Assembly: GCA_023144635.1 (NCBI GenBank)
Contig: JAGLFH010000037.1
Location: 26,489 to 90,488, forward strand
DNA: 64,000 nt
Reading direction: 5' to 3'
Origin: Candidatus Auribacterota bacterium
Lineage (GTDB): Bacteria; Auribacterota; JAFGBW01; JAFGJP01
A model generated the notes under the pieces. The model was not told the DNA's origin. It ran no database searches and saw only the letters and a list, made by a program, of their open reading frames with translations. Made by a program: the position numbers and the translations under genes. Below are positions 5,919 through 55,555 of this stretch, in pieces (position 1 is the stretch's first letter; the number at the start of each line of letters is the position of its first letter).

Positions 5919-5950
5919 TTTACATGGGCGAAAGATTTTTCGCCCCTTGT
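5919..5950 (+). repeat. REP-like hairpin unit
   Basis: tacatGGGCGAAAgattTTTCGCCCct; core identical to 55368-55395. Confidence 0.7.
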
Positions 5951-6023
5951 ATGTTTTCACAATTCAGGTAACATCAGAGAAAATATGGGACGCAGATCAA
6001 TAGGATTAAGAGCTTTATTATCT

Positions 6024-6060
6024 TTCACACGGACAGGGACAAGCCCTGTCCCTACATACT
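6024..6060 (+). repeat. REP-like hairpin unit
   Basis: cacacGGACAGGGacaagCCCTGTCCctacatac. Confidence 0.7.
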
Positions 6061-6147
6061 TTTACTTTCTATGGTTCATGACTCTGTGTTCTCTGTGAAC
6101 GTGCTAAAAGTCCGCCGGGGCGGGTGGTGTGAAAGGCTTTTGCTTTT

Positions 6148-7659
6148 TTATCCATAATTTTTATCAATAAGACGCATAATATAATGTTTCTCTATTGCTA
6201 CAATCAGAACAACATGAAAAAAGATATAATGCAATGTATTCGTATCTACAAAAGAATGCACAAATGATCCTACGAAAACACCCAGTAAAGCTACTGATAT
6301 TAATTTTTCATCTTTTTTTAGTTTTTCTTTTGAAATAAATAAAAACATCTTATATATAAGAACAATGTAAAATATTAGTGCTGTCAGTCCTGCAAAAACA
6401 CCCATTTCCACTGAAAGGTTTAGAAAAAGATTATGAGCATGAAAATTATGAAATTCTATCTCTTTAGTAGCATACTTGAGCTTGTCAAAGAACAGCATCA
6501 TATCAATAATATAGGCTGGACCAAACTGTTTATAAAACTCCTCTCCCATATTCAAAAACCCTACTCCAAACAACGGAGAACGCTCTATCATTCTTAAAGA
6601 ATAATCCCATATCTGCCCCCTTCCGCTAAGCCCTGATTTTAAACGCAGAAGAAATATGATCTTCTCCAGATAAATCATAATAACGGCTACGACTGATGAT
6701 ACACCTGCAAAGACCATCTTCCACAAATGTTTAGGACGGACATATAGAAGCACTATCCCGCACCCTATCATCATATTAAGAAGCCCTCCTCTGCTAGAAG
6801 CAATAAGCTGTGCAAAAGCTATGCAAGCAAACAAAAAACCATAAAAGATCTTTAATGAGCGCTTCTTATTCACAAAAAACAAAACAAGGGCTATCGGCGC
6901 AATGGATGCAAGTACAGCACCAAAAATATTCTGATGAAAAAAAACAGAACTGGCTTTAAACTGTTTTAAATCACTTGCCTGCCAGCCAATTTTTAAAGCT
7001 ATATTCTGCCAACCTATGGGAACTATATAATCCTGAAGAAAAAGAAATTTTTGTTTTCTGACAACTATCCACTGCAATATACCGAAAAGAGCCAGAAAAG
7101 TAACGACCAGACAAAGGTTCCTAATAAATACTGAAACTTTCCTTTTTTCATTAAAATAATCACTTAAAGCTAGCATAAACAAAGGAAGAAGAAGCATTCC
7201 TAGGCCGCGAATAAAAGTCTTTGAGGGATTTTCTGCATTAATTGTTGATAAGAGGAAAAAAGTAACCAGAAGAAAAAGAAATTTTTTCGTAAACCCAAAA
7301 TATTTAAGACGAATCTTTACTATAGGCTCTGCATTTCTCTTTAATGACCATATGATACAAAATATAATTATGATTATAGGAGTCATGACCGGTATTGCAA
7401 AAGATATTTCATCAACAGGTGAGTTCTGAAAATACATCATTAGAAATATCAGCGCAACCGCAATATCAGGCTTAAAAAAGATAAGAGCTATTAAAAAAAC
7501 ACCACCAATAATAGCAATTGTATACAGATAGTTATAATTTGAAAAAAAGCTTATGCACCATCCTGCAAAAAGGATTATAAAAAAAAAGATTAAAAGTTTT
7601 TCAGTTTGATCTTTCAGTAAAATTTCTTCTACCCCACGTAAACAAGTTAATAAAAACAT
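6148..7659 (-). CDS. O-antigen ligase / Wzy-like polytopic membrane protein
   Basis: 503 aa, about 10-12 predicted TM helices plus a periplasmic loop, typical of the O-antigen ligase family; directly downstream of the Wzz-like gene. Confidence 0.55.
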   Translation of the reverse strand: MFLLTCLRGVEEILLKDQTEKLLIFFFIILFAGWCISFFSNYNYLYTIAIIGGVFLIALIFFKPDIAVALIFLMMYFQNSPVDEISFAIPVMTPIIIIIFCIIWSLKRNAEPIVKIRLKYFGFTKKFLFLLVTFFLLSTINAENPSKTFIRGLGMLLLPLFMLALSDYFNEKRKVSVFIRNLCLVVTFLALFGILQWIVVRKQKFLFLQDYIVPIGWQNIALKIGWQASDLKQFKASSVFFHQNIFGAVLASIAPIALVLFFVNKKRSLKIFYGFLFACIAFAQLIASSRGGLLNMMIGCGIVLLYVRPKHLWKMVFAGVSSVVAVIMIYLEKIIFLLRLKSGLSGRGQIWDYSLRMIERSPLFGVGFLNMGEEFYKQFGPAYIIDMMLFFDKLKYATKEIEFHNFHAHNLFLNLSVEMGVFAGLTALIFYIVLIYKMFLFISKEKLKKDEKLISVALLGVFVGSFVHSFVDTNTLHYIFFHVVLIVAIEKHYIMRLIDKNYG

Positions 7660-7672
7660 TCATTATAAGGAG

Positions 7673-9832
7673 TTACCTCCAGATCTTGTCAATAAAAGGA
7701 AATACTGGAATATGTGAACTTTTCTTTGCAATAAAAACATGAACATTTCGACCATGAACCAGTTTTGATTTAAAGAAAGCCTCTACATCTTCTATAGAAG
7801 TTTTATCATACTGAGTAACAAGAAGTGTCATATCTGCATGAGGTATGACTGTCTGCCAGTCGTCAGACAAATGAGTCGGTGTATTTTCAATAAATATCAC
7901 TTTATAATGACGCCTAAGAATAGGAATAAAATCTTTTAAATGCGCAAGGAGATAATATTCAACAGGAGAGACCCCCTTACCGCCTGCATAGAAATAATCT
8001 ATACCGTCTTTTGTTTTTTTTGTCATTATCTTTTCTAATTTATCTTCATCCACATCCTCTGCCTGAAAAGAATCCTCTTCATTTGAAGTCACTTCTTCAA
8101 GATTTGGATACTGAGCACTTCCCGATGTATTAAGATTTATTATCACCGGCTTAAGACCAAGTTTATTCAGGAAAACTGCCCAGTGATGCAACAAAAACGA
8201 CTTCCCTTCTTTACCGTTTATGCTGATAACTTGCACAACAAGTGAACTTCCATTCGTGTTTGAATATAACGTCCTTGTAAAATCTCTGATATTTCTTTCT
8301 GCAAATACTTTATGCCCCATATGTACAGACGGGAACTTCGGTACAGTACGCATTGAAGATATACCTTTTTGAAATTCAGCAAGATCTTCTTTTGACCTTA
8401 TCCTTCGTTGAGGAAGATCTATAAAAATTATGATAAAGAGACATACTGCACATGCAGAGCCCAGACACAATGCCAGAATGATAAATTTCCCTGATGTCTT
8501 TACAGGAGGCAAAGCAGGAGAAATTATTTTAACGACTTGAAGCTGCTCCTTATTCATTATTATTCTGTTCTTCTGCTGCTCCTTAATAAGGAACTGGTAA
8601 ACTTTTTGAGCAGTCGTAAGATCCATTTTGAACCTTACCATCTCCATTTCCAAAGCCGGAAGATCTTTTAATTTTCTCTCATAGATATCAACTATATCTT
8701 TGAGCGCTTCTTTCTTTGAGATCAATGCATATTTTTCGGATTCATTTTCAATAATACCTTTTAAAATATCCTGAATAAAAGGCTCTGTTGGAAGATTGTC
8801 ATAATTATCATTTACCATTCGCCTTATCTTATCTTTCATCTGTTTTTTCAGTTCATTGATCTGCCTGCGTATTGATTCAGCAGCACCAGGTGTAGCATAT
8901 CTATTTCGCTGTACGTTAAAATACTCATGTTCTAAAGAGACAAGTGCATTACGCGATTCTATAATAGATGAAGAATCAAACATCTCATCTGATTTTTTTA
9001 AATTTGATGCATATTTAGTAAACTTCTCTTTTAAGTTTTTGATAATTGCTGTCTTTTCTTTGATAGAGATTGCTACAATATTAAGCTCTGAATTATAACG
9101 GCTTAACGTTTCAAGATCTATTTTTGCTTCCAATGCAAGAGAATCGCTAAGTGCTATATTATATTCTCTTTGAAACCTTTCCATCTGGTCCTGAATATCA
9201 TGAAACTCACGTCGGGATCTTTCTGCTTCAGCAAGAACAAAGTCATACTGCAATTTTGCTTCACTATGCATAATATCAAGAAGTTTTTTTGAATACTCTG
9301 ATATGAGAACAGATACTATTTTATCGACCTTATCCCGGTAAGAATACTCTGCTTTTATTTTTGATATAAAAGTAAAAGGCTCATTTTTTATCTTTAGTAT
9401 ATTCTTTTTTAAAACTTTTATTTTTTTTCTTATTTTTCGCTCTTTTTTATCTTTAAGGTCTTTTTCAGTAGCATATTTGTCCATTATATTATCAAGCAGC
9501 CTTCCAACAGTAAGTTGAAAATAATCATATTTTATATCATCAACAAGATTTAGCTGCTCCACTACTTCACGAAGCACAGCATCGCTTTTTAAAAGAGCCA
9601 CATTAGTTTTCATATAGACAAGCGCACCCTGAGCTTCCATTGCAGGAGTTTCAACTGATGTTAAAGAAAGATTAGGGCTGATCATTATTTCAGCTTCTGA
9701 GCGATATTTGGGAAGAAAAATTATTTTAAGGAAAAATAATCCTGTAAAAAAAATAAAAATTAATGTAAAAATAAAAAATCTTTTAAAAAAGATCTCTGTT
9801 AATCTGGTAACAATTTTTTTAAATTCTTTCAT
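7673..9832 (-). CDS. polysaccharide chain-length determinant (Wzz/GumC-like) with C-terminal degenerate P-loop domain
   Basis: 719 aa; N-terminal TM, long coiled-coil periplasmic region, second TM, then a C-terminal domain with a degenerate Walker-A-like segment (SINGKEGKS). Confidence 0.55.
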   Translation of the reverse strand: MKEFKKIVTRLTEIFFKRFFIFTLIFIFFTGLFFLKIIFLPKYRSEAEIMISPNLSLTSVETPAMEAQGALVYMKTNVALLKSDAVLREVVEQLNLVDDIKYDYFQLTVGRLLDNIMDKYATEKDLKDKKERKIRKKIKVLKKNILKIKNEPFTFISKIKAEYSYRDKVDKIVSVLISEYSKKLLDIMHSEAKLQYDFVLAEAERSRREFHDIQDQMERFQREYNIALSDSLALEAKIDLETLSRYNSELNIVAISIKEKTAIIKNLKEKFTKYASNLKKSDEMFDSSSIIESRNALVSLEHEYFNVQRNRYATPGAAESIRRQINELKKQMKDKIRRMVNDNYDNLPTEPFIQDILKGIIENESEKYALISKKEALKDIVDIYERKLKDLPALEMEMVRFKMDLTTAQKVYQFLIKEQQKNRIIMNKEQLQVVKIISPALPPVKTSGKFIILALCLGSACAVCLFIIIFIDLPQRRIRSKEDLAEFQKGISSMRTVPKFPSVHMGHKVFAERNIRDFTRTLYSNTNGSSLVVQVISINGKEGKSFLLHHWAVFLNKLGLKPVIINLNTSGSAQYPNLEEVTSNEEDSFQAEDVDEDKLEKIMTKKTKDGIDYFYAGGKGVSPVEYYLLAHLKDFIPILRRHYKVIFIENTPTHLSDDWQTVIPHADMTLLVTQYDKTSIEDVEAFFKSKLVHGRNVHVFIAKKSSHIPVFPFIDKIWR

Positions 9833-10048
9833 AGCCCGTTTTCTGTAATGTATTATTGTTATTTAAATATAGTTTAACATAATACATATAAAATGTCAAC
9901 TTCTAATTAATATTTAATATATACCTATCTCCCTGAGTTACAACATAATAACTATTATTTCATATATTGATCAAATAAACACTACTATGCATATTTTTGA
10001 TACTTACATGAATTTTTGAAGAAAATGAAAAAAAATCAAAAATACAAC

Positions 10049-10711
10049 TTATCTTGAACGGGATTTTTCTATGTTTTTTTTGATTACCGAAAAATTTGAT
10101 GTCGAAGAACCTACCATATGCCCTTTTTTATCATATACGCTGACACTGGGTATAGATGTTATCTTGTGCTGTTTTGCAACAGGACTACCCCAATTATCAA
10201 TGTTTATCTTTCTTAAGATAACATCATCATATTTTTTTATTAGATCTTCAAGCTTAGGGCCCAACACTTTACACGGACCGCACCAATCAGCATAAAAATC
10301 AAAGACAACAACGTACCCCCTTACTGTATTACTTTTAATGTTTACCTTGCTGCCCTTTGATATGGTTTTTATTCTTGCAACATTACCTAATAATTTCTTT
10401 CTTGGCTGTGGACTTTCTTTTAAGCCTGGATCAGCTTCTTTTGCTTTAGAACCAGTTTTTTTTGACTGTATATAGACTCTTTTTATTTCTGAAACATTGA
10501 CTTTTTCTGTTTTATTATCACTCATCTTTACAAGATATCTTTTACCGTTAAAATACAATAACTTTCCCTTAATGACCTGACTGTCCTTTTTTATTATCAT
10601 GACAATCTGCTCAAACCCTTTGTTTTCACTGAAATAAATATTCTCTGAAAAATAAGAGCCTATTATGATTATCAGCAATACTACCATAATGAAAATTAAG
10701 AAATTCTTCAT
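10049..10711 (-). CDS. thioredoxin-domain protein, membrane anchored
   Basis: 220 aa; N-terminal TM; C-terminal FDFYADWCGPCK thioredoxin active site (WCGPC); AGGAAA SD. Confidence 0.7.
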   Translation of the reverse strand: MKNFLIFIMVVLLIIIIGSYFSENIYFSENKGFEQIVMIIKKDSQVIKGKLLYFNGKRYLVKMSDNKTEKVNVSEIKRVYIQSKKTGSKAKEADPGLKESPQPRKKLLGNVARIKTISKGSKVNIKSNTVRGYVVVFDFYADWCGPCKVLGPKLEDLIKKYDDVILRKINIDNWGSPVAKQHKITSIPSVSVYDKKGHMVGSSTSNFSVIKKNIEKSRSR

Positions 10712-10775
10712 ATTTTTTCCTGTGTTTTATATTAAATATTTTACTATAAATAACTTTTAGATTAAAGCTAAAGGA

Positions 10776-11474
10776 TCAATTGTCATACAGAAATGATATC
10801 CTCTTCTTTTTTCTGAAAAACGACAGCAAAAAGACCCCCATAATAAATCCTCCTATGTGAGCCCACCAAGCAACGCCTCCTGATGATAATGAATCTTGCG
10901 AAGACAAAGCTGAAAATATCTGTATAAGTAACCATAACCCAAAATAAAAAAATGCAGGAACTTCTAAAAAATAAGGTATGAAAAAAACAGGAACAAGGAC
11001 AACTATTCTTGCCCTTGGAAATATTAGCATATAAGCCCCCATGACAGCTGCTATTGCCCCTGAAGCACCTATTATAGGAACAGCTGAATGAATATTAAAT
11101 AAAAAATGTGCCATATTTGCAATAACTCCACAAAGTATATAAAAAACCAGAAACCCAACATGACCTACATGATCTTCCACATTGTCTCCAAAAAGCCAAA
11201 GCGTCCACATGTTCACAAAAAAATGCATCCACCCACCATGAAGGAACATATTTGTAATAAACGGTAATGGATTATACTGCAGAAGAGCTCTTTCCATTGC
11301 CCAATTAAGATCAATATAGCGGGCAGGAACCATACCGTAAATCGCAAAAAACCTCTGTAAAGCATCCTTTGAGAGTGATTTTTCATACAGAAAAACTAGA
11401 GCACTTACAATTATGATAGCCCCTGTCATAAGAGGAGGTTTTTGATGAGGGTTTATATCATTAAGTGGTATCAT
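10776..11474 (-). CDS. rhomboid family intramembrane serine protease
   Basis: 232 aa polytopic; GASGAIAAVMGAY (catalytic Ser motif GxSG) and AHIGGFIMG (catalytic His). Confidence 0.85.
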   Translation of the reverse strand: MIPLNDINPHQKPPLMTGAIIIVSALVFLYEKSLSKDALQRFFAIYGMVPARYIDLNWAMERALLQYNPLPFITNMFLHGGWMHFFVNMWTLWLFGDNVEDHVGHVGFLVFYILCGVIANMAHFLFNIHSAVPIIGASGAIAAVMGAYMLIFPRARIVVLVPVFFIPYFLEVPAFFYFGLWLLIQIFSALSSQDSLSSGGVAWWAHIGGFIMGVFLLSFFRKKKRISFLYDN

Positions 11475-11595
11475 ATCTTTAATTTTCTCTTACATTTACT
11501 ATAAGCTAACATCTTTCTAAATCAAATAATAATTATTATTATTGACCAAAACGTTTTCAAACATAATAATTACTCTAAATTTAAAGGAGGGCTTA

Positions 11596-11700
11596 ATGAG
11601 GGTAATTGAAGATGATTTTGAAGATGACCTAGGGGATGATTTTGAAGATAATGAAACAGATGATGATGCTGAAGATGATGATAACTATGACTATGATTAA
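11596..11700 (+). CDS. small highly acidic peptide (34 aa)
   Basis: ATG 11596 preceded by GGAGG with 5-nt spacer; MRVIEDDFEDDLGDDFEDNETDDDAEDDDNYDYD; followed by a perfect 16-bp hairpin plus T5 at 11751-11791. Coding status unproven. Confidence 0.3.
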   Translation: MRVIEDDFEDDLGDDFEDNETDDDAEDDDNYDYD

Positions 11701-11750
11701 TCTTTTGAAGACGAAGATAATCAAGATTAATGAGTGAATTTAATAATATA

Positions 11751-11791
11751 CTACAAAGGACAGCATTCAAATGCTGTCCTTTGTAGTTTTT
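11751..11791 (+). terminator. intrinsic terminator-like hairpin (16-bp perfect stem, 4-nt loop, T5)
   Basis: ctacaaaggacagcat-tcaa-atgctgtcctttgtag followed by ttttt; ends 8 nt before the rlmN ATG. Confidence 0.6.
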
Positions 11792-11799
11792 AGGTCACC

Positions 11800-12837: not shown

Positions 12838-12907
12838 CCAATATTTTGCCTGGTCTTAATTTTTATAAGACTTTATAATATGTTCAATTAAATAAAAGTA
12901 ATAAAAT

Positions 12908-13717: not shown

Positions 13718-13733
13718 GGACAGAGGGAAGAAC

Positions 13734-13790
13734 AGTTAATTGGTTTACTTGTTAAATAGTTAACTGGTTCAAGGAGCACTGAAGCGCGAT
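13734..13790 (+). repeat. intergenic repeat module (CAGTTAATTGGTT...GTTAACTGGTTCAAGGAGCACT)
   Basis: About 55-nt module also at 50633-50690 (+) and 46503-46557 (-). Confidence 0.6.
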
Positions 13791-13846: not shown

Positions 13847-13885
13847 GATCCCGCGGTTAAACACGCGGGATGACATACGTTTTGG
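13847..13885 (+). repeat. hairpin repeat module (GATCCCGCG...CGCGGGATGACATACGTTTT)
   Basis: 8-bp stem atcccgcg/cgcgggat; second copy at 43281-43316 has the same stem and a different loop. Confidence 0.55.
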
Positions 13886-13982
13886 TTTCGAATTTTAAAC
13901 CTTTTACGGGGGTTGCTTCGTCGCAATAAATCACAATGATTTACTGCTTCTCGCAATGATAACGTTTTCTTTTTTATTACTT

Positions 13983-14020
13983 TTTATACGGGCGTATTGC
14001 AATACGCCCCTACATACTTT
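13983..14020 (+). repeat. REP-like hairpin unit
   Basis: tacGGGCGTATTGCAATACGCCCctacatac; perfect 20-nt palindrome, identical to 48090-48109. Confidence 0.75.
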
Positions 14021-14134
14021 TATGTTTTTCTCTTCGTGGTTTTTGTGGTTAATTAAAATAATGCGTCGCAGACACCATAATTTTAAGTACTTTAGCTCAC
14101 TTTAGGCATTTAAAACTTTATATATCTGTCTTAC

Positions 14135-15914: not shown

Positions 15915-15943
15915 ATTAGAAATTGATTGAAGAGATTAATTTA

Positions 15944-25365: not shown

Positions 25366-25499
25366 TACAGACACAAGACTCAAGCAAAACCTCAGAATCC
25401 AAAGACCTAAAACAAAGAAGAAATAACAAAAGGCACAAGACTCAAAAGCGTTGTTCGTCGTTCGTGATTCGGGGTTCGTGAATTGAGCGCTCCGCGATA

Positions 25500-25660
25500 T
25501 AAAATAAAAAGCAGAGAACAGAAAAAAATCGAGGGATGAAGGACGAGGGACAAAAAAACAGAAGATGCACGATACAAGATACACGATAAATAAAAGCAAA
25601 AGACTTTAGACTCAAGGGGAAAAGCACAAGATAGAAAAGAATAATAAAGAATAAATGTCC
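25500..25660. repeat. T-depleted purine-rich low-complexity tract
   Basis: agcagagaacagaaaaaaatcgagggatgaaggacgagggacaaaaaaacagaagatgcacgatacaagatac...; several GGA motifs. Confidence 0.45.
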
Positions 25661-25723: not shown

Positions 25724-25767
25724 CACCCCGCAGGAGTAACCAAGTAACACCTACGGGGTGGTTTTTT
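25724..25767 (+). terminator. terminator-like hairpin repeat (CCACCCCGCAGG...CCTACGGGGTGG plus T6)
   Basis: caccccgcagg-agtaaccaagtaaca-cctacggggtgg-tttttt; second copy 47979-48027. Confidence 0.45.
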
Positions 25768-25776
25768 ATACTACGC

Positions 25777-25810
25777 TTTACAGCGGGCGCAGGCTAGCGG
25801 CGCCCCTACT
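25777..25810 (+). repeat. REP-like hairpin unit
   Basis: cagcGGGCGCaggctagcgGCGCCCctactcac. Confidence 0.6.
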
Positions 25811-25872
25811 CACATTCTACTTTTTATGTTTTACAAGGGCGGTTCGCTTATTTTACACCAAATCCTTGCCCT

Positions 25873-25919: not shown

Positions 25920-25967
25920 CTATCGCAGATCCGCCAGCGCTTTGAGGAGGACTCACTTTTTATTTTG
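25920..25967 (+). repeat. intergenic repeat module (CTATCGCAGATYCGCCAGCRCTTTGRGGAGGACT)
   Basis: Three copies in window (25920, 28432, 41733 inverted), each preceded by a GC hairpin and containing GGAGGACT followed by a T-run. Confidence 0.6.
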
Positions 25968-28431: not shown

Positions 28432-28480
28432 TCGCCCCTATCGCAGATTCGCCAGCACTTTGTGGAGGACTAACTTTTTT
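28432..28480 (+). repeat. intergenic repeat module (CTATCGCAGATTCGCCAGCACTTTGTGGAGGACT)
   Basis: cgcccctatcgcagattcgccagcactttgtggaggactaactttttt. Confidence 0.6.
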
Positions 28481-28483: not shown

Positions 28484-28520
28484 GTTTTACAAGGGCGGAT
28501 TTAGAATCCGCCCCTACATA
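28484..28520 (+). repeat. REP-like hairpin unit
   Basis: acaaGGGCGGATTtagAATCCGCCCctacata; identical core at 55528-55548. Confidence 0.75.
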
Positions 28521-33715: not shown

Positions 33716-33990
33716 GACTCAATAAAACGTGGTGCGTGATGCGTTGTGAGTTATGCGTTCAAGGAGCACTGCGTAATAAAAAACGTCATTCGTCGTTCGG
33801 GATTCGTGGTTCGTTCAAGGAGCGCTTCCGCCTTCGTTAAAACTATGGCGAGACAGGAAAGCGAGATAAAAAAACATTAAAAGCGTGATTCGGGGTTCGT
33901 AGTTCGTAAATGGAGAGAACACAGAGTCATGAACCACGTCCTAAACCACATAGGGTTCAGGATAAACAGAAAAAGTAAAAGGTAAAATGT

Positions 33991-34025
33991 GAGTAGGGTT
34001 CTGGCCTGCCTGAACCGTGTAAAAG
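33991..34025 (-). repeat. REP-like hairpin unit (inverted orientation)
   Basis: Plus strand gaGTAGGGTTCtggcctgcctGAACCgtgtaaaag; identical core at 43158-43187. Confidence 0.6.
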
Positions 34026-34231
34026 ATAAAATGTGAAAGTAAGAAAGGGTTACAGCGTTCAAGGTTATTCGATGGAGTTTATTCTGAGCGGAGTCTAAGA
34101 TCCATTCACGAAGAACACGAAAGACAAATTACGAATACCCCTATTTTCTCCCCCTCTGTCCTCTGCTTTCCGGGCTTTTTCTTCAGTCTTGAGTCTGGTG
34201 TCTTGAGTCTTGAGTCTTACATAAAAATCCC

Positions 34232-37240: not shown

Positions 37241-37381
37241 AAAAGTGTTGAGTGTTAAGTTTTGAGTGATGAGTTGAAGGAGCACTTCGTGCGAAGATAG
37301 ATACAAGATACAGGATAAAAACAAGAACAGAAGACAGAGGACAGAAAGAATAGAATTACATTTAACAAATTATTGAGGTTG

Positions 37382-37424
37382 CTTTCACGTGACCACGTTG
37401 ACACGTGGAACGTGACTCACGTAG
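37382..37424 (+). repeat. CACGTG-rich 41-nt repeat module (copy 2)
   Basis: Identical to 5623-5663; lies between purL and purF. Confidence 0.7.
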
Positions 37425-37547
37425 CACCCTACTGCTTAGCTTTGCAAGCAAAACTAAGCAAAAATCAGAGTTCGCAATAACGAAATTTTACTTTTATATT
37501 TAACTAACAACTAACTTGAAAAACAATTTCTACTAAAAGCTAAAATT

Positions 37548-41732: not shown

Positions 41733-41795
41733 AAAGGTAGTCCTCCACAAAGCGCTGGCGGATCTGCGATAGGGGCGATTCATGAATCGCCCAAT
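41733..41795 (-). repeat. intergenic repeat module (same family, inverted) with perfect 20-nt palindrome gggcgattcatgaatcgccc
   Basis: Plus strand aaaaggtagtcctccacaaagcgctggcggatctgcgataggggcgattcatgaatcgccc; lies between purH and purD. Confidence 0.6.
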
Positions 41796-43154: not shown

Positions 43155-43190
43155 ATGTAGGGTTCTGGCCTGCCTGAACCGTGTAAGATA
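43155..43190 (-). repeat. REP-like hairpin unit (inverted orientation)
   Basis: atGTAGGGTTCtggcctgcctGAACCgtgtaag. Confidence 0.6.
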
Positions 43191-43200: not shown

Positions 43201-43235
43201 AAGTAGGGGCGCTGCTTGACTGCGCCCGTGTAAAA
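43201..43235 (-). repeat. REP-like hairpin unit (inverted orientation)
   Basis: aaGTAGGGGCGCtgcttgactGCGCCCgtgtaaaa; same GGGCGC/GCGCCC stem as 25785-25805 in opposite orientation. Confidence 0.65.
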
Positions 43236-43280: not shown

Positions 43281-43316
43281 GATCCCGCGATCAAGTCGCG
43301 GGATGACAACGTTTTA
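43281..43316 (+). repeat. hairpin repeat module (GATCCCGCGA...TCGCGGGATGACAACGTTTT)
   Basis: 9-bp stem; upstream of purE. Confidence 0.55.
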
Positions 43317-45371: not shown

Positions 45372-46214
45372 TTATTCTAAAAAAACTTTTACCTGTGATC
45401 CTCTACCGTGAGCAAATGAAAAAACAACATCACTTGCACCTTGAGGAATTGGTACATTAAAAATATTTTTTCCCTGAGATAAACGTCCATTCTGAGCATA
45501 GGGATGCCATGCGCCATTATAATAAACTTTAATCGTATTTATTATTATTGCATGCTTTTCAGTAATATTGACATCTACAATTATCTTTGAAAAACTTCTG
45601 CCACCCGTATAAGCACTTACATTATACTTTCCAACTTTTTTATCATAATTAGCCTTAGTAAAAGAAGCGATCAAAACCTGCGAACTATGTTTTTTTACAA
45701 TAGGATTGTGACTTGATTTCTGACGTGTACAACCGGGACAACTGCTATTATTTGAACCATACCATCTTTTGCAATGAGTACAACGTATACTGGGGTTTGA
45801 AGAATGAGAAAGACTTACATCAAAACCTTGTCTGCAATGCGGGCAATTAACAAAAAATTGATCAGTGTTCAGTTTTCTTCCGCAATTAACACAAAAAGAA
45901 CTATTAGACTTATTACGCGCTCCACAATTCTGGCAAAGAGCAATCGTATTACTTGTGTTTAAACCAAAATTTCTGTGACAATGCGGACAATATACATTTT
46001 GAGAATATGATGAATTTGTTGATGATGTTAGTTTTGCACCACACCCCGCACAATAATTAGCATTAGATTTATTCTGGTAACGGCAGCTCGGGCATTCATA
46101 ACCCGATCGGTTACTTTGTGATCCTTGATTAAATATATCCAGCCATGAATTGTCTGCAACAACAACAGGCACTATTAAAAAACAAATTAATAAAGTAAAA
46201 ATTATTTTTTTCAT
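45372..46214 (-). CDS. secreted protein with four to five tandem zinc-ribbon (CxxC...CxxC) modules and C-terminal beta-rich domain
   Basis: ORF track starts at 46295 inside a repeat region; ATG at 46214 follows GGAAGGA SD and gives signal peptide MKKIIFTLLICFLIVPVVVA; repeated CPSCRY...CAGCG, CPHCHR...CQNCG, CVNCG, CPHCRQ...CTHCKR...CPGC. Confidence 0.55.
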   Translation of the reverse strand: MKKIIFTLLICFLIVPVVVADNSWLDIFNQGSQSNRSGYECPSCRYQNKSNANYCAGCGAKLTSSTNSSYSQNVYCPHCHRNFGLNTSNTIALCQNCGARNKSNSSFCVNCGRKLNTDQFFVNCPHCRQGFDVSLSHSSNPSIRCTHCKRWYGSNNSSCPGCTRQKSSHNPIVKKHSSQVLIASFTKANYDKKVGKYNVSAYTGGRSFSKIIVDVNITEKHAIIINTIKVYYNGAWHPYAQNGRLSQGKNIFNVPIPQGASDVVFSFAHGRGSQVKVFLE

Positions 46215-46275
46215 ATCAAATCCTTCCTTCGGGGTTTGCCGCGTCGCATCTCCTCGCAATGACAACATTTTACGT

Positions 46276-46312
46276 TTTATAGCGGGAGGAGGCAAGCACC
46301 TCCCCTACATAC
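46276..46312 (+). repeat. REP-like hairpin unit
   Basis: tagcGGGAGGaggcaagcaCCTCCCctacatac. Confidence 0.55.
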
Positions 46313-46360: not shown

Positions 46361-46395
46361 TTTTACACGGTACGGGCAAGCCCGCACCCTACTCA
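46361..46395 (+). repeat. REP-like hairpin unit
   Basis: ttttacacGGTACGGGCaaGCCCGCACCctactcac. Confidence 0.6.
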
Positions 46396-46502: not shown

Positions 46503-46557
46503 CGCACGAAGTGCTCCTTGAACCAATTAACTTTTTAACCAGCTAACTAATTAACTG
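46503..46557 (-). repeat. intergenic repeat module (CAGTTAATTGGTT... family, inverted)
   Basis: Reverse complement reads cagttaattagttagctggttaaaaagttaattggttcaaggagcacttcgtgcg. Confidence 0.6.
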
Positions 46558-46683
46558 TTTCCATCTATGTCCGTGCTGAATTTTCATTCTTTTTAAACTT
46601 CTTATACATAGATATAGACGATCAAAACACATAAATATTTCATAAAACAACAGAAATTCGCTGGCAAGGTCAAAGATTAAGAA

Positions 46684-47891: not shown

Positions 47892-47978
47892 AATATGTCT
47901 TCCTTTATAACTGATTTATATTATTGATGCAATAAATAAAAAGATCAAAAAAAGTGACTAAAATACGTTAAAGTTTCT

Positions 47979-48027
47979 CCACCCCGCAGGAGTAAACAAA
48001 TTACACCTACGGGGTGGTGGTCTTTTT
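47979..48027 (+). repeat. terminator-like hairpin repeat (second copy, plus orientation inside a minus-strand operon gap)
   Basis: ccaccccgcaggagtaaacaaattacacctacggggtggtggtcttttt; between nrdR and glyA. Confidence 0.45.
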
Positions 48028-48082
48028 CAAATTACACAAGTAAAAAACAAATTCTAAATATCAAATTAGATTCAAGACATAT

Positions 48083-48120
48083 CATACACGGGCGTATTGC
48101 AATACGCCCCTACTAACTTT
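48083..48120 (+). repeat. REP-like hairpin unit
   Basis: cacGGGCGTATTGCAATACGCCCctactaac; identical to 13990-14009. Confidence 0.75.
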
Positions 48121-48155
48121 TTACTTTTCCATTTGTGGCTAATTGCCTTTTGTTC

Positions 48156-48195
48156 TTTCACACGGACAGGCACAGAGACCTGTCCCTACATATAT
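48156..48195 (+). repeat. REP-like hairpin unit
   Basis: cacacGGACAGGcacagagaCCTGTCCctacata; identical core at 55483-55504. Confidence 0.7.
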
Positions 48196-48261
48196 TTTAT
48201 TTTTTATTTTAATGTCGTCGAAGGCTCCTTTCACGAACACCAAACGACGAACCACGAGTTT

Positions 48262-49506: not shown

Positions 49507-49948
49507 TATTGCTCCTCTCGATATCAGTTATCTTATCCACACGTCTTCCATGCCTTCCGCCCTCAAATTCTGTATTAAGCCAGATATCCAATATTTCAAC
49601 TGCTGTTTTATCCTCTACAAAAGCACCTCCAAGAGCAAGCACGTTAGCATCATTGTGCTTCCTGCTCATTTCTGCCGCTTTTGGAGTTCTACAAAGTGCA
49701 GCTCTTATTCCACGTACCTTATTAGCAACCATAGACATTCCAATACCTGTTGTACAAATAACTATTCCTTTATCTGCCTTTTTATCTGCTACTGCACGCG
49801 CTGCCTTTATACCAAAATCAGGGTAATCTACAGAATCTTTATTGGGACATCCAAAATCATCAACTTCATATTCTTTTTTTAGAAGATATTCTTTTACAAA
49901 TTCTTTTAACTCAAATCCTCCATGATCACTGGCAATTGCTATTTTCAT
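49490..49948 (-). CDS. rpiB: ribose-5-phosphate isomerase B
   Basis: 152 aa; [25 protein letters not shown] motifs. Confidence 0.9.
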
Positions 49949-50412
49949 ATAATATCAGCCACCTTTTCTATTGCTGGTTTCATTAATTCAAAACAATTTT
50001 CATAAGCATGCATTGGAAGACCTATTGGATCAAAAACATCAGGATCTTTAGGATTATGATTTTCCTCAAATTCTCTTAAAAGATAAATCTTTTTTTTACT
50101 TTCAGGAAACCTTTCTTCAAGTTCCCTTACATGTGACCATGTCATTCCAAGTATAATATCTGATGCTTCCACAAGTGCACCTGTTACAGGCTTTGCTTTA
50201 TTTCCACTTATATCAAGAGCAACGTCTGATAAAACCTGGATTGCATGAGCACTTGGAGAAGACCCTTCATACGCGGCAAGTCCTGCAGAATATACTATAA
50301 CATCCATTTTATTTATATTTTTAAGTACTTCTTTCATATATCCTTCTGCCATCTGAGAACGGCAAGAATTTCCTGTACAAACAAAAAGTACTGCTTTTTC
50401 GCGTTTATCCAT
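49945..50412 (-). CDS. low-molecular-weight protein-tyrosine phosphatase / ArsC-like
   Basis: 155 aa; VLFVCTGNSCRSQMAEG is the LMW-PTP P-loop (CxGNxCRS). Confidence 0.85.
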   Translation of the reverse strand: MDKREKAVLFVCTGNSCRSQMAEGYMKEVLKNINKMDVIVYSAGLAAYEGSSPSAHAIQVLSDVALDISGNKAKPVTGALVEASDIILGMTWSHVRELEERFPESKKKIYLLREFEENHNPKDPDVFDPIGLPMHAYENCFELMKPAIEKVADII

Positions 50413-50484
50413 AATTCCCCTTATAATGTTGTTACATATTAAAGAAATAGTATATTACTATGAATATATTATATTTGCAAATAG

Positions 50485-50625
50485 TGATATAAAAATCAGA
50501 TGACAGAAGACAGAGGGCAGATAACAGAAAACCACATGATTCGTCTTTGGCGAAAACGTGGCTTCGCAGAGGATAGAAGATAGAAAAAGCAAGAGAAAAA
50601 CACAAGATTAAGGCAAAACAGAAGA
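50485..50625. repeat. T-depleted purine-rich low-complexity tract
   Basis: gatgacagaagacagagggcagataacagaaaacc...ggatagaagatagaaaaagcaagagaaaaacacaagattaaggcaaaacagaagaaaaag. Confidence 0.45.
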
Positions 50626-50632
50626 AAAAGAT

Positions 50633-50690
50633 CAGTTAATTGGTTAACTCATTAAAAAGTTAACTGGTTAAAGGAACGCTCCGCTGATTA
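50633..50690 (+). repeat. intergenic repeat module (CAGTTAATTGGTT... family)
   Basis: cagttaattggttaactcattaaaaagttaactggttaaaggaacgct. Confidence 0.6.
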
Positions 50691-50953
50691 TTATAATAAT
50701 GACCAAGGAAAAACACGAGAGGAAAAGTAATTCGTGGTTAATTAATATTATATCGCCGAAAGCTCATTAATTTCACATTTTCTGGTTTTTTTACCTGGCT
50801 TCCGCGGTCTCTCCCAACAAGATGGCGGACAAGTAAACTACGTGATGACAACATTATACGTTTTACTTTTATCTTTTAACCATTTACTATGGACTATTGT
50901 CTATCGACTATTTTTGTTTTTTCTATTATCTGCTATCTGCCTTCTGATTTCTG

Positions 50954-51925
50954 TCACTCATATCCAAGCTGTTTAAAAAGTTTATCGGTAGATTTTAAAT
51001 ATATATCTTTATTTATTTCTTCTAGCCAGTGTTCTTTTATATATTCATTTGCCTGGACACGTGCATCTCCCCAACCCTGCCCCACCCACATAGGCTGGTC
51101 TTCCCAATTGCTGTTTATATAACTAATAGCTTTAATATTATGCTTTTTTACAAACTTGAAAAATAATTTATACCATGCTTCCCAGCCTGTTTTATCAAGA
51201 GATGTACTCATTCCCTTCGGCGTAGCTTCTCCTATCATCACAGGTTTATTATATTTTTTTGCAAACGCTATGACAGGTTCCATCATATCTTCAGGCTGGC
51301 TGAAATAGGAAAGACCTATCCAATCAACATAAGCATCTCCCGGATACCATTTGATAAGGTCAGGTTCTACCTGATGACCGTGTGCATGCCACACATAAGC
51401 TGTATTATTTACTCCTGCATCTTTTAGCTTATCTACAAGATAACAATAAGCTTTTTTATATTCTTCAGGATCATGATGATTGTGCGGGCCATTGAATTCA
51501 TACCCTATACGAAGATATACGGGTACTTTAACCTTTTTAAGCCAGCCTGCTAATAAAACTATATTGTCATCATACAGGCCTTCATAAGTCTTTGATAAAG
51601 CATCTACCATGTAAAGCCCTATCTGGATAACAGTAAACGGATACTTATTCAAAAGCTCATCAGCATAGAATGTACCTGACCCATAATCCTTTGAAATATA
51701 ATTTAGTCCATCCATATCCTGAATCGAAGTATATATCATGAAACCGCCGGGGATGTTTCCTGTATCATCAATATATGTTTCTATGGTCTTATTATCCTGA
51801 CCGATTATTAGAAGGACCTTATCTTGTGGGGGTTCGAGTTTTGATAAAACATTTTCTGCAAAAGAAGTATGACAAAAAAAGATAAAAAATAATTGCAACA
51901 TGAAAAGTGAAATAATAAATCTCAT
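50954..51925 (-). CDS. secreted glycoside hydrolase, clan GH-A-like (GH26/GH5-like)
   Basis: 323 aa with signal peptide; candidate catalytic glutamates in RIGYEFNGPHN and MIGEATPKG; family assignment by eye only. Confidence 0.45.
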   Translation of the reverse strand: MRFIISLFMLQLFFIFFCHTSFAENVLSKLEPPQDKVLLIIGQDNKTIETYIDDTGNIPGGFMIYTSIQDMDGLNYISKDYGSGTFYADELLNKYPFTVIQIGLYMVDALSKTYEGLYDDNIVLLAGWLKKVKVPVYLRIGYEFNGPHNHHDPEEYKKAYCYLVDKLKDAGVNNTAYVWHAHGHQVEPDLIKWYPGDAYVDWIGLSYFSQPEDMMEPVIAFAKKYNKPVMIGEATPKGMSTSLDKTGWEAWYKLFFKFVKKHNIKAISYINSNWEDQPMWVGQGWGDARVQANEYIKEHWLEEINKDIYLKSTDKLFKQLGYE

Positions 51926-51971
51926 AATAATTCCTTTCTATTATTAATTTATAAAAAATATTTGAGTAATC

Positions 51972-52697
51972 TTAGTAATTACCATGGAAATCTGCATCAT
52001 AATCAAATATCGGCTCCTTAGATAGATCAATTACTCTATGATAACCTGCTGTGTTTCTCTTTCTTGTAGTAGATCCGGCATCATAGCAACGTTTAATCCC
52101 CCATTTACCATGCCTTTTTTTGCCTAAATGATTATGACCGTAAAGCAGAGCATCAATGTTTCCATTTTCCATTAAAACATTTCCAAGTTCTTTTGAATCC
52201 TTAAGTTCATGGAAAGGAAGCGGATCAAAAGGATGGTGATGCATATATACAACTATATATTTACTATTCTTTACCTCTTTAAGTGTAAGTACTTTGCTAA
52301 GACGATCCAGCTGATTTGTTCCGATTTGACCTTCAGCAAAAAGCCTGTTATACCAATGGATCTCCTCTGCCATAGAATCAATACCTATAAATGCTATATT
52401 ATCTATAATATCGAGCTTTGGATATTGTACATTTGAATTTTCTAAGATCTTTTCTTTAAAAAGCGAAACAAATTTTTTAGAGCTTTTGGAAGCTGTTCCG
52501 TAATCATGATTTCCGGGAACTACAAGCACAGTAAAACCTGCTGATTCAAGTTTTCTTATATACATCCTTGCTTCAAGATAATTAGAAGGGTCTATTGCGT
52601 TTTCGACCAGATCACCAGTTATTACTATCACATAATCCTTAGCAGGTTCTTTTAAAAAAATAATACTTTCTAATATACACTTGAATCTTTCTCCCAT
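51972..52697 (-). CDS. metallophosphoesterase (calcineurin-like); true N-terminus probably 16 codons upstream at an ATA codon (52745)
   Basis: GDLVENA (motif II), GNHD (III), HHHP, GHNH present; motif I (IIHLSDIHVGF) lies in-frame upstream of the first ATG, with no ATG/GTG/TTG available and GGAGG 6 nt before an ATA. Confidence 0.8.
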   Translation of the reverse strand: MGERFKCILESIIFLKEPAKDYVIVITGDLVENAIDPSNYLEARMYIRKLESAGFTVLVVPGNHDYGTASKSSKKFVSLFKEKILENSNVQYPKLDIIDNIAFIGIDSMAEEIHWYNRLFAEGQIGTNQLDRLSKVLTLKEVKNSKYIVVYMHHHPFDPLPFHELKDSKELGNVLMENGNIDALLYGHNHLGKKRHGKWGIKRCYDAGSTTRKRNTAGYHRVIDLSKEPIFDYDADFHGNY

Positions 52698-52805
52698 ATT
52701 CTCAAAACCAACATGTATATCACTTAAATGTATTATCTTTTTTATTTCAGACCTCCATAAGGTTTTACTAAATTATATCATAAAAAATAGTAGGGCAGAT
52801 ACTTT

Positions 52806-54659
52806 TCAGAACATCTGTTCTTCCTCTTCAAATTCCTTAATTTTTTCCTCATATACTTCTGTTGTTTTTCCAAGTTCTTCATAACCAGTATCTATTAGAC
52901 CCTGTAATTCCTGAACGAACCTTGATAGTTCGGATATAGCACTTATATTTGAAGAGTTAGAAGCATCTATAAGAGCTTCCATCTTTTCTTTTAAAACTTT
53001 TTCTCTTTCCTCAATCTCTTTTTCCAGTAATGGGATTTTGTTTTTATATGGAGTCAATACTCTTGAACGCCTATTTATAAATTCTGCCCGAGCTTTCTTT
53101 TTCTGTTTTATTGATACTGATTTATTAATTCCATTTTTATCCTCAGACTTTTCCTTTGTAAGGTCACCGTTAGTATCTCCCCAACCTACTTCATCAAGAA
53201 AATCTTCATAACCTCCATGATAAATAAATAATCCGTTATCGTGAAAAACGATCAGCTTTTTTGCAACCCTATATAAAAACTCTTCATTATGAGTAACGAT
53301 CACTGATGCACCGTCAAAATTATCTACTGCATCTATTATTCCCTCACATGATTCCATATCAAGATGATGGGTAGGTTCATCAAGTAAAAGTACATTTGCC
53401 GGTGTTACAAGCATTTTACCAAGGAGGACACGGCATCTTTCTCCTCCTGATAAAACACTTATTTTTTTAAGAGCATTATCTCCGGAAAACATCATTAAGC
53501 CGCAGATATCCCTGCTTCTTTTGTTATCACTTCCAGATCGGCAGGATAAAATTTCTTCTTCAACACTCAAATCATCTCTTAAGTTTGCAGTGTCACCCTG
53601 CTCAAAATAAGCTTTTTTAGTTTGAGGGTGGTAACGAACCTGACCATTCTTAGGGTTGAGTCTTTCTGCGAGCAGCTTTAAAAGCGTTGTCTTACCTTTA
53701 CCATTTTTTCCGATAATGCAAATTCTATCATTTTTTGCCACAGCAAGATTAAAATTATCTATTAGTTTTGGAGAATCATCGGAATAAGAAAAACTGAGAT
53801 CAGCAATATCCATTACATATTTTGCCGGAAAAGAGGCAAAATTAAAAGAGAACGAAAGAGTTGATATTTTATCCAGTTTTTCCAGCTCCTGCTCTTTTCT
53901 AATTCGCTTTACACGAGATTGTACCAATGATGCCCTTCTCGCTTTGGCTCTAAATTTATTTATAAACTCATTTGTCTTCTTGTGTTTCTTTTCAATATTG
54001 ATACGCTGTTTTTCATAAACCTCTTCTTCTTTTGAGACCCTTTCATAATAATTACCGGTTAAGCCAGTACATTTTTTAACATTTTTTCTATGAATACCCA
54101 CTATATGAGTTACAACGCTGTCCATAAAACATCTGTCGTGACTGACTATTACACATTCACCGCGCCAAGAATTTAAAAAACGTTCCAGCCACCTTATAGA
54201 AACAATATCAAGAAAGTTAGTAGGTTCATCAAGCAATAACAAATTAGGATTTGATACAAGCACTTTTGCAAGATTAAGACGTATTTTATAACCACCGGAA
54301 AATTCCAGAGGATCACGTAAAAAATCCTCTTCAAGAAAACCAAGTCCAGCAAGGACTTTCTTTACTTTCCACTCGTTTAAGTTTTCATGCTTAGGAAGCC
54401 CAAGACAACCTTCTTCAAGAACAGTTTTAGCACTAAAACTTATATGCTGGCTCAAATAACCTATACGGTAGTCTTTTGGAAGACTGATGGTGCCTTTATC
54501 ACAAGGCTCTTTCCCTGTAATCAAGTTAAAGAGTGTAGTCTTGCCGTGCCCATTTCTGCCTACAAGACCAACACGTTCACGGGGATTGATGCAAAAAGAA
54601 ACATCATCAAAAATAACCTGGTCCCCATATTGTTTGCTGATTTTCTGTATTAAGATCAT
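52806..54659 (-). CDS. ABC-F family ATPase (two ABC domains, no TM domain)
   Basis: 617 aa; two Walker A (GRNGHGKTT, GKNGKGKTT), two signatures (FSGGYKIRL, LSGGERCRV), linker with coiled-coil. Confidence 0.9.
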   Translation of the reverse strand: MILIQKISKQYGDQVIFDDVSFCINPRERVGLVGRNGHGKTTLFNLITGKEPCDKGTISLPKDYRIGYLSQHISFSAKTVLEEGCLGLPKHENLNEWKVKKVLAGLGFLEEDFLRDPLEFSGGYKIRLNLAKVLVSNPNLLLLDEPTNFLDIVSIRWLERFLNSWRGECVIVSHDRCFMDSVVTHIVGIHRKNVKKCTGLTGNYYERVSKEEEVYEKQRINIEKKHKKTNEFINKFRAKARRASLVQSRVKRIRKEQELEKLDKISTLSFSFNFASFPAKYVMDIADLSFSYSDDSPKLIDNFNLAVAKNDRICIIGKNGKGKTTLLKLLAERLNPKNGQVRYHPQTKKAYFEQGDTANLRDDLSVEEEILSCRSGSDNKRSRDICGLMMFSGDNALKKISVLSGGERCRVLLGKMLVTPANVLLLDEPTHHLDMESCEGIIDAVDNFDGASVIVTHNEEFLYRVAKKLIVFHDNGLFIYHGGYEDFLDEVGWGDTNGDLTKEKSEDKNGINKSVSIKQKKKARAEFINRRSRVLTPYKNKIPLLEKEIEEREKVLKEKMEALIDASNSSNISAISELSRFVQELQGLIDTGYEELGKTTEVYEEKIKEFEEEEQMF

Positions 54660-54727
54660 AGGTCAGTATTGTATCAATTCTTTTAAAAATCAAAAAGAAA
54701 TTAAAGGGAAACGGGTTAGATAATTGA

Positions 54728-55174
54728 TTATTCTGTTTTTGGGATATTGGTAAATACTTTTTGGCGGTCAAGAGAATATATCAACTTTGTTTGATCAACA
54801 ATAATTATCATTTTTAGTTTATCTTTTGATTCAAAAGAAAATTCAAAAGTCTCATTTACATTGTTTTCAAAATCAATAGTAAGTGTATTTTTCAACAAAG
54901 AATAAACACCCATTATTTCTTCAGCATATCCATCAAAAATATTTTTTTTCCTGCATTTACCATCTTCCGTAAAAGCATAGGTAGTTACCATATCCAAATC
55001 GCTACCCATTGCATTTGTTTCTACTATTTTCCACGTACCGATAATACTTGCATCTACATTAATTATGCGGGGAGTATCTTTCTTTACTGCAGTTGAAGTG
55101 GAATCGCATCCTTCAAGACAAAAAACAGCAAAAACCATACAAAAAAATACACTTATTATTGTTTTTGGATTCAT
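54728..55174 (-). CDS. putative lipoprotein
   Basis: 148 aa; signal peptide with lipobox-like LEGC. Confidence 0.55.
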   Translation of the reverse strand: MNPKTIISVFFCMVFAVFCLEGCDSTSTAVKKDTPRIINVDASIIGTWKIVETNAMGSDLDMVTTYAFTEDGKCRKKNIFDGYAEEIMGVYSLLKNTLTIDFENNVNETFEFSFESKDKLKMIIIVDQTKLIYSLDRQKVFTNIPKTE

Positions 55175-55365
55175 AACATCCCCTTGAATACTTTATAACT
55201 CTATATGAAATGTATTTTAAACCTTAATTTATATTTTTGAAAGGAAAAACTACTTCACCACGAAGGGCACGCCCGCTTTCGCTAAAGCTTTAGCGAGGCC
55301 TCATTGTCTCGTCGTAGCCTTGGCGTAGAACGGGAAGGAACACGAAGAAAAGCTTTTCTTTTTAC

Positions 55366-55400
55366 ATTACATGGGCGAAAGATTTTTCGCCCCTACTACT
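55366..55400 (+). repeat. REP-like hairpin unit
   Basis: tacatGGGCGAAAgattTTTCGCCCctactac; identical to 5926-5945. Confidence 0.7.
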
Positions 55401-55476
55401 TTTTACCTAGATTCCTGCCTAGCGGCAAGGTCGCTGGCATTCGCAGGAATGACATACGTAATAGTATTTTGTGCTT

Positions 55477-55515
55477 TTACACGGACAGGCACAGAGACCT
55501 GTCCCTACATGCGTT
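55477..55515 (+). repeat. REP-like hairpin unit
   Basis: ttttacacGGACAGGcacagagaCCTGTCCctacatgcg. Confidence 0.7.
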
Positions 55516-55517
55516 TA

Positions 55518-55555
55518 CATTTTACAAGGGCGGATTTAGAATCCGCCCCTACACA
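55518..55555 (+). repeat. REP-like hairpin unit
   Basis: ttttacaaGGGCGGATTtagAATCCGCCCctacacac; directly abuts the previous unit. Confidence 0.75.

Follow-up and report, generated by a model that had tools for sequence, protein, structure and literature searches.

Repetitive extragenic palindromes (REPs) are small palindromic intergenic repeats which, in other systems, are tied to a REP-associated tyrosine transposase (RAYT). Their GTAG superfamily takes in the REPs and bacterial interspersed mosaic elements (BIMEs) of E. coli, the REPs of Pseudomonas and the SMAG elements of Stenotrophomonas (Di Nocera, De Gregorio & Rocco 2013, PMC3733652). According to the same survey, its members carry a GTAG tag and stems of 6-13 bp, their subfamilies differ by complementary changes in the stem, a single genome may contain several types, and head-to-tail clusters are rare. 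Among the transposases, TnpA-Y1 subclass 2.4 (RAYT group 4 in the scheme of Bertels et al.) is known from Cyanobacteria, Bacteroidetes and a scatter of other phyla, and shows signs of horizontal transfer; its hallmarks are REPs with a foot of three G-C pairs, "double-foot" REPs, and a REP inserted between HuH and Y with the reading frame preserved (Quentin et al. 2018, PMC6006769). The subject here is a window, i.e., a whole 64-kb stretch of DNA (34% G+C) from a Candidatus Auribacterota bacterium, whose intergenic spacers contain repeated hairpin cores. These cores are probably (we would put it at about three in four) the variable stem-loops of one GTAG-tagged REP family, copied by a RAYT and made up of types that are each present in multiple copies.

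Repeated cores within a common hairpin frame

A preliminary description of the window listed five cores, each present exactly twice and in different intergenic regions, and exact matching bears this out. The core GGGCGTATTGCAATACGCCC (type c1) starts at 13990 and 48090, GGGCGAAAGATTTTTCGCCC (c2) at 5926 and 55373, GGACAGGCACAGAGACCTGTCC (c3) at 48164 and 55483, GGGCGGATTTAGAATCCGCCC (c4) at 28493 and 55528, and GTAGGGTTCTGGCCTGCCTGAACC (c5) at 33993 and 43157, the last start having been placed one base off, at 43158. A sixth stem, GGGCGC/GCGCCC, is likewise confirmed, with one copy at 25785 and one, inverted, at 43207. The two have the stem in common, but their 9-nt loops match at no more than six of nine positions, so they represent related types and not identical copies. 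Every copy lies between open reading frames (ORFs). In random sequence of 64 kb one would expect about 0.002 exact repeats of 20 nt, and the frame-plus-stem pattern has five matches in the window versus 0.00 in 100 shuffles; chance is excluded as the source of the exact repeats. Overlooked earlier were the conserved flanks common to all the cores, as well as five further members, at 5780, 6031, 41773, 46284, and 46369.

Hairpins preceding CCTAC were scanned for and the spacers were read, which yielded the frame of the family, tTTTACAN (TTTTACAN) - [GG..stem-loop..CC] - CTAC - nnAC - TTTTTAC. The family comprises 17 units distributed over 10 intergenic spacers; they fall into 12 sequence types, five of them seen twice and seven once. 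The A/T-rich 5' flank is conserved across the units, the stem of 7-9 bp always begins with GG...CC, and the loop has 3-9 nt. The foot of the stem is GGG...CCC in eight of the 12 types and GGA or GGT in four, while the unpaired tag after the 3' arm reads CTAC in 15 of the 17 units, the remaining two having CTAT and CTTG. Read on the opposite strand, each unit shows GTAG followed by a palindrome with a G-C foot, and therefore falls by definition within the GTAG-tagged REP superfamily; what had been labelled "REP-like" can be called a GTAG-tagged REP. A covariance model (R1) built from the units and searched against the window recovers exactly these 17, at E <= 2e-4, with no other match below E = 0.4. 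The units, with model scores in bits and hairpin energies, are the following.

5768..5815, plus strand: REP unit c7, core 5780-5799 GGGCACAGCACGCTGTGCCC, tag CTAC; 45.6 bits, E 4.6e-8; hairpin -8.6 kcal/mol
5914..5961, plus strand: REP unit c2, core 5926-5945 GGGCGAAAGATTTTTCGCCC, degenerate tag CTTG; 41.9 bits; -9.1 kcal/mol
6019..6067, plus strand: REP unit c8, core 6031-6051 GGACAGGGACAAGCCCTGTCC; 53.1 bits; -8.7 kcal/mol
13978..14025, plus strand: REP unit c1, core 13990-14009 GGGCGTATTGCAATACGCCC; 48.0 bits; -8.0 kcal/mol
25772..25821, plus strand: REP unit c6a, core 25785-25805 GGGCGCAGGCTAGCGGCGCCC; 43.8 bits
28481..28529, plus strand: REP unit c4, core 28493-28513 GGGCGGATTTAGAATCCGCCC; 47.3 bits; -10.4 kcal/mol
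33981..34028, minus strand: REP unit c5, core 33997-34016, GGTTCAGGCAGGCCAGAACC on the minus strand; 51.5 bits
41757..41805, minus strand: REP unit c9, core 41773-41792 GGGCGATTCATGAATCGCCC, tag CTAT, then conserved tail ATCGCAGATCCGCCAGC...; 33.3 bits
43145..43190, minus strand: REP unit c5, second copy, core 43161-43180; 39.0 bits
43191..43239, minus strand: REP unit c6b, core 43207-43227, GGGCGCAGTCAAGCAGCGCCC on the minus strand; 52.6 bits
46271..46320, plus strand: REP unit c10, core 46284-46304 GGGAGGAGGCAAGCACCTCCC; 45.7 bits
46357..46404, plus strand: REP unit c11, core 46369-46388 GGTACGGGCAAGCCCGCACC; 54.4 bits
48078..48125, plus strand: REP unit c1, second copy, core 48090-48109; 46.8 bits
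48152..48201, plus strand: REP unit c3, core 48164-48185 GGACAGGCACAGAGACCTGTCC; 48.8 bits; -6.4 kcal/mol
55361..55408, plus strand: REP unit c2, second copy, core 55373-55392; 45.3 bits
55471..55515, plus strand: REP unit c3, second copy, core 55483-55504; 30.7 bits
55516..55564, plus strand: REP unit c4, second copy, core 55528-55548; 54.8 bits
28418..28439, plus strand: degenerate REP-like hairpin GGCGGATTTATAATTCGCC with CCTAT, then ATCGCAGAT tail; read by eye, no model match at E = 1

The form in which c5 was first given, GTAGGGTTCTGG..., is the plus-strand reading of the unit at 33993. Stem cells are paired in 95% of cases as against 68% in shuffles, compensatory change on both sides is seen at five of the seven stem pairs, and the covariation score of 0.69 compares with 0.16 in shuffles and at most 0.26 in slid registers. 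The 12 types share a single folding register, in which hairpins of 5-9 bp form at -3.5 to -10.4 kcal/mol (DNA folding) and the flanks stay unpaired. This shows that the stem is kept as a structure and not as a sequence, the upper stem and the loop being variable. Between identical copies the runs of identity cover 26-34 nt (ACAN, core, and CTAC) and end just outside the hairpin and the tag, where they are bounded by ACAN and CTAC, the flanks beyond being merely similar; such copies look like products of the copy-paste spread that had been proposed as one of two explanations. All five clusters of units are arranged head-to-tail in a single orientation, the other units being singletons, and the motif TTTTAC recurs on both sides of the units.

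The intergenic position of all the units and the compensatory changes preserving their structure could also mark RNA elements selected by the host, such as attenuators of operon transcripts or stabilisers of their 3' ends, which would have spread through recombination or slippage and not through a dedicated transposase. In six of the seven co-directional spacers (11 of 12 units) GTAG is on the coding strand, and action at the RNA level has been argued for many REPs (Di Nocera et al., PMC3733652). However, at the level of spacers this orientation bias (6/7) has a P of about 0.13, the stems lack a subsequent T-run whichever way they are read, and no unit between 41 and 57 kb scored as terminator-like; moreover, identical units of 26-34 nt at unrelated sites, as well as within RAYT genes elsewhere, point to mobility. 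RNA elements of this origin are thus an unlikely explanation, while a function at the RNA level is compatible with transposase-driven spread of the REPs. As for established identities, intrinsic terminators were rejected for the hairpins at 41-57 kb, which are followed by a tail of CTACATAC... or GTGTAAAA and not by a T-run; no match to Rfam 15 was obtained at gathering thresholds anywhere in the window, and there was no tRNA match. GC skew was rejected as a guide to the direction of replication because it only tracks gene orientation.

Unit c10 overlaps by 11 nt the called TTG start of the ORF at 45372-46295 (minus strand, 307 aa); as this TTG lies inside the REP, the true start of the gene is probably further downstream. 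Two other listed ORFs, at 5754-6098 and 55304-55612 (both plus strand, 114 and 102 aa), are read-throughs of REP clusters (GRKIFRPY, TDRHRDLSL) and are not called as genes in public records.

Type repertoire and copy number

The units had been described as many low-copy alleles of one element type. That there is one element type with many variants holds true, but the low copy number does not agree with the sampling of types in the window. Twelve types in 17 draws give a Chao1 value of about 17, and the probability of so few types is P = 0.06 for a pool of 50 equally frequent types and P = 0.003 for one of 100, which implies a pool of roughly 15-50 types. Since this pool is limited, each type is probably multi-copy genome-wide, and the finding of cores "exactly twice" most likely reflects the size of the 64-kb window. 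A moderate abundance of about 14 occurrences was reported for 16-mers flanking group 4 RAYTs (Bertels et al. 2017), making a repertoire of many types, each moderately abundant, plausible.

Quite unlikely, on the same evidence, is a set of private alleles with some two copies each genome-wide, kept non-identical by selection, e.g., against recombination. No core exceeds two copies in the 64 kb, neighbours within clusters always differ in type, and the figure of about 14 for group 4 leaves room for modest copy numbers per type. Yet with just two copies per type in a genome spanning a few Mb (an assumed size, of which the window would be 2-3%), about 0.1 complete pairs would be expected beside the seven singletons, as opposed to the five seen, and a pool of 100 types or more is rejected by the P of 0.003 given above. 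The distances between the members of a pair (7, 9, 27, 34, and 49 kb) show no local clustering and look random within the window. The lack of same-type neighbours has a P of about 0.4 under random assortment of the observed type frequencies, so selection for non-identical hairpins, the second of the explanations offered earlier, finds no support in it. In addition, types c1 and c2 are widespread in other genomes.

Occurrence in other genomes and the putative transposase

A collection with one genome per species was scanned with a frame-plus-GGGCG-stem pattern, TACANGGGCGN{9,12}CGCCCCTAC. The matches listed come from many phyla, usually one per genome, and since in almost all of them the stem runs past the specified bases they are real hairpins. 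The exact c1 core followed by CTAC (24 nt) was also searched for in metagenomes and was present in at least 120 stretches whose flanks are unrelated and whose GC content ranges over 31-71%, most of the copies being a perfect 28-nt palindrome, GTAG-c1-CTAC. No contig of the source lineage was among the metagenome matches listed, and neither lineage-specific flanks nor other modules of the window were present in the 120 loci listed. Hairpins of the form GGATTCC...GGAATCC, similar to a second hairpin family of the window described below, adjoin c1 in the unrelated metagenome contigs L125, L131, L139, L168, L193, and L221. In viral contigs c1 was found in eight stretches and c2 in 28 stretches of 35-73% G+C with unrelated flanks, while c3, c4, and c5 were found in none; of two control palindromes with the same frame and an arbitrary inner sequence, one was found in no stretch and the other in 17, all from one lineage. 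Near relatives of the c3/c8, c4, and c10 stems are present in other phyla. Some core types are therefore cosmopolitan, and c1 and c2 are not private to the window genome. This sharing across phyla need not mean recent transfer, because the sequence space of the frame is small and well populated; its saturation may explain much of the sharing of cores.

When the ORFs near the metagenome c1 matches were clustered, the one recurrent family apart from housekeeping genes was a Y1/HUH transposase. In nine of the at least 120 loci c1 lies in frame within the transposase ORF, just past the HUH strand, and is translated as VGAYCNTP or GVLQYAPT. Four further loci have a RAYT-like gene. Two of these genes are separated from c1 by 44 and about 200 bp and two by 0.3-2.4 kb, one of the latter pair being only a weak match (E 5e-5). 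The c1-bearing ORF matches the NCBIfam family NF047646 (REP-associated tyrosine transposase) at E 1.3e-16, which is below the curated cut-off, and Pfam Y1_Tnp weakly; its motifs NH[IFV]H, WQ, and YIxNNP are those of TnpA-Y1 subclass 2.4. An association between REP and RAYT gene is thus observed for core c1, in other organisms only, and a REP embedded in frame in the transposase gene is an already published arrangement. Similar embedding is seen for relatives of other cores, the RAYT ORF of locus L138 containing a c7-like hairpin that differs by one compensatory pair and that of L040 a c2-like hairpin that differs by one nucleotide, both in other organisms. It is also worth mentioning that an identical c1 occupies the same place in loci L142, L162, L173, L179, L197, L239, and L132, whose RAYT proteins are only about 47-60% identical to each other, that the c1-bearing variable region of the RAYT gene in L179 and L132 contains tandem arrays of repeat-encoded peptides, and that the RAYT genes of L192 and L220 have the look of pseudogenes. 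Exact c2 was noticed in L061, an 8-kb locus from a metagenome-assembled genome (MAG) of Desulfuromonadaceae taken for a different hairpin, together with a partial RAYT-like ORF. In a search for REP-bearing ORFs or a RAYT of the Auribacterota lineage itself, a synthetic bait combining every open translation of the lineage-specific cores had no match at E <= 10.

In the insertion sequence IS608 a single-stranded hairpin is recognised by the Y1 enzyme, and a fixed TTAC motif marks the junction of insertion. For the window units, a putative Y1/HUH RAYT of TnpA-Y1 subclass 2.4 (group 4), encoded elsewhere in the Auribacterota genome, would recognise the hairpin in single-stranded form together with its G-C foot and GTAG tag, and would copy the units in trans; any stem variant that still folds would then be propagated as its own "sequence type", i.e., as a set of identical copies. 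Insertion might take place beside a TTAC-like target regenerated by the unit, as in IS608, and the TTTTAC on both sides and the head-to-tail clusters would fit such a target, by analogy only. An extended scheme, in which pan-bacterial types c1 and c2 are combined with one RAYT that amplifies at least a dozen types and with head-to-tail arrays at TTAC targets, is doubtful as a whole. Within this scheme c1 and c2 may be pan-bacterial "species", identical over 24-28 nt across genomes of about 31-73% GC and within RAYT genes whose proteins are only about 50% identical, and the REP embedded in the transposase gene could be a travelling seed, by which the cognate substrate is carried along at gene transfer.

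The presence of a TTAC-like motif on both sides of a hairpin, which resembles the target and cleavage logic of IS608, raises the question of miniature IS200/IS605 derivatives moved by a classical TnpA-IS200, possibly with TnpB, and not by a RAYT. Such an origin is improbable, as the GTAG tag directly at the G-C foot is a signature of the REP/RAYT system, the genes near identical cores elsewhere are of the Y---NP type (YIxNNP) and not of the Y---Q type of IS200, and the window contains no insertion sequence ends, no tnpA or tnpB, and no Rfam IS605-associated RNA.

REP-bearing spacers and related systems

The region of the window is also found on contig DAOVST010000013.1 (105.8 kb) of the MAG GCA_030633405.1, annotated as Candidatus Aureabacteria/Auribacterota, and was recovered from several samples with 99.96-100% identity. 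The independent assembly of the same region from these samples shows that the REP elements did not arise by mis-assembly. Several of these assemblies stop, or have an N-gap, precisely where a REP-bearing spacer lies, a usual effect of multi-copy repeats on assemblies of short reads; the REPs explain both the assembly breaks at certain spacers and the spurious ORFs listed over them. Thus, an origin of the hairpins in metagenome mis-assembly or binning, suggested by these breaks and gaps, is scarcely credible given the independent assemblies and the presence of biological signatures (covariation, the tag, and homologues elsewhere). An assembly end, a join to a different repeat copy, or an N run is seen at REP spacers in L001 (1-94), L248 (10114-10213), and at the start of L003 (window position 33988), and in L248 the N run covers 55487-55566 of the window, the span of c3 and c4. 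No insertion polymorphism was detected across the other samples, which represent the same population (99.96-100%), the sole apparent difference being an N-gap.

The lineage is isolated: in the protein collection the closest PurD shares 75% identity and the second closest 57%, and the one close relative lies on a 2.9-kb contig. The purD-purE spacer has 11 bp in this nearest relative and 322 bp in the window, where it houses two REPs and other modules; on this comparison the spacers have been filled since the lineages diverged. In the closest relative (L249, 1-160) GAAAATC heptamers are located upstream of purD.

Other repeats were noticed in the window. A second hairpin family, in the same spacers as the REPs and on the minus strand (5736-5759, 13848-13875, 43282-43308, and 55411-55454), has a CGTC or TGTC tag, a stem starting with AT (ATTCCTGC or ATCCCGCG), a loop that varies, and CTAG as its tail; it agrees with the REP superfamily that Di Nocera et al. 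define by a CGTC tag. Yet another repeat, a composite module, is found at 13728-13790, 25450-25510, 33725-33850, 37241-37300, 46506-46570 (minus strand), 50628-50700, and 60905-60950; it consists of a tandem heptamer array followed by a conserved GTTCAAGGAGCRC, a small hairpin, and GATAATTATAAAA, and it recalls the cyanobacterial short tandemly repeated repetitive (STRR) sequences. Its heptamer varies by copy (GTTAACT, GTGCGTT, TTCGTGR, and AGTGTTG), and many further arrays of period 7 were detected in REP-bearing spacers with Tandem Repeats Finder (TRF). A 47-nt repeat, 96% identical between 5619-5665 and 37379-37425, is built of overlapping CACGTG/ACGTG palindromes (TTTCACGTGACCACGTTGACACGTGGAACGTGACTCACGT). 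A 39-nt hairpin, CACCCCGCAGGAGTAA...CCTACGGGGTGG, 92% identical between 25724-25762 and 47980-48018, is followed by a T-rich stretch and is possibly a genuine terminator module. Finally, hairpins ending in CCTAT are followed by a conserved 32-nt tail, ATCGCAGATYCGCCAGCRCTTTGWGGAGGACT, at 25922-25953, 28440-28471, and 41739-41770 (minus strand), a different hairpin preceding each of the three copies of the tail.

Several observations weigh against the assignment to a RAYT-copied REP family of multi-copy types. No RAYT-like ORF was found in the window by tblastn, and the 14 kb of flanking contig contain neither a Y1 transposase family among the called genes nor a REP unit; the cognate RAYT of the Auribacterota lineage is putative and unproven. 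Because of this lack of a RAYT in the window and its flanks, membership in the REP-RAYT system rests on sequence features and on associations in other organisms. The genome-wide copy number is derived from sampling statistics, not from counts, and c3, c4, and c5 were not found outside the organism of the window in the collections scanned. Among the 17 units there is no inverted pair of the REPIN (REP doublet forming a hairpin) or BIME kind and no "double foot" (GTAG...CTAC), and in four of the 12 types the foot is limited to two G-C pairs. The clusters of the window are all head-to-tail, whereas head-head and tail-tail dimers dominate most described families; the inverted dimer, absent among the window units, is typical of the superfamily but does not strictly define it.

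Compared with described systems, the units share with the ends of IS608 and other IS200/IS605 elements a single-strand hairpin and a short fixed TTAC-like junction motif, and differ from them in their length of about 30-48 nt, in having no transposase between ends, and in the GTAG tag. REPINs, which Bertels and Rainey reportedly described in 2011, are inverted REP pairs forming a longer hairpin; they are said to be non-autonomous, thought to be copied by a single-copy RAYT, and present as variant populations within a genome. The window units resemble them as non-autonomous hairpin repeats whose sequence variants coexist in one genome, although none of the 17 has an inverted partner. The REPs of subclass 2.4 have in common with the units hairpins with a G-C foot and a scattered distribution over many phyla; on the other side, no RAYT gene was found in the 78 kb examined around the units, four window types have a GGA/GGT foot, and the units are without the double foot that most c1 copies elsewhere possess.

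The units are ordinary GTAG-type REPs and no new kind of element. They extend these REPs, and probably the RAYT subclass 2.4 system too, to the candidate phylum Auribacterota, outside the published REP surveys consulted. The high ratio of types to copies, together with the strictly head-to-tail clusters, offers a convenient natural experiment, which could separate the parts of a REP read by the tyrosine transposase (tag, foot, and structure) from those that drift. Relative to the GTAG superfamily the peculiarities are the conservation of flanking sequence, some 8 nt next to the untagged end (TTTTACAN) and some 12 nt past the tag, the unusually high diversity of 12 types in 17 copies, and a host belonging to a candidate phylum outside the survey of PMC3733652. 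In common with that superfamily they are palindromic extragenic units of 20-40 nt in which an unpaired GTAG borders one end of a 6-9 bp stem, with short loops, subfamilies with complementary changes, several types per genome, and clustering in the spacers of co-directional or convergent genes.

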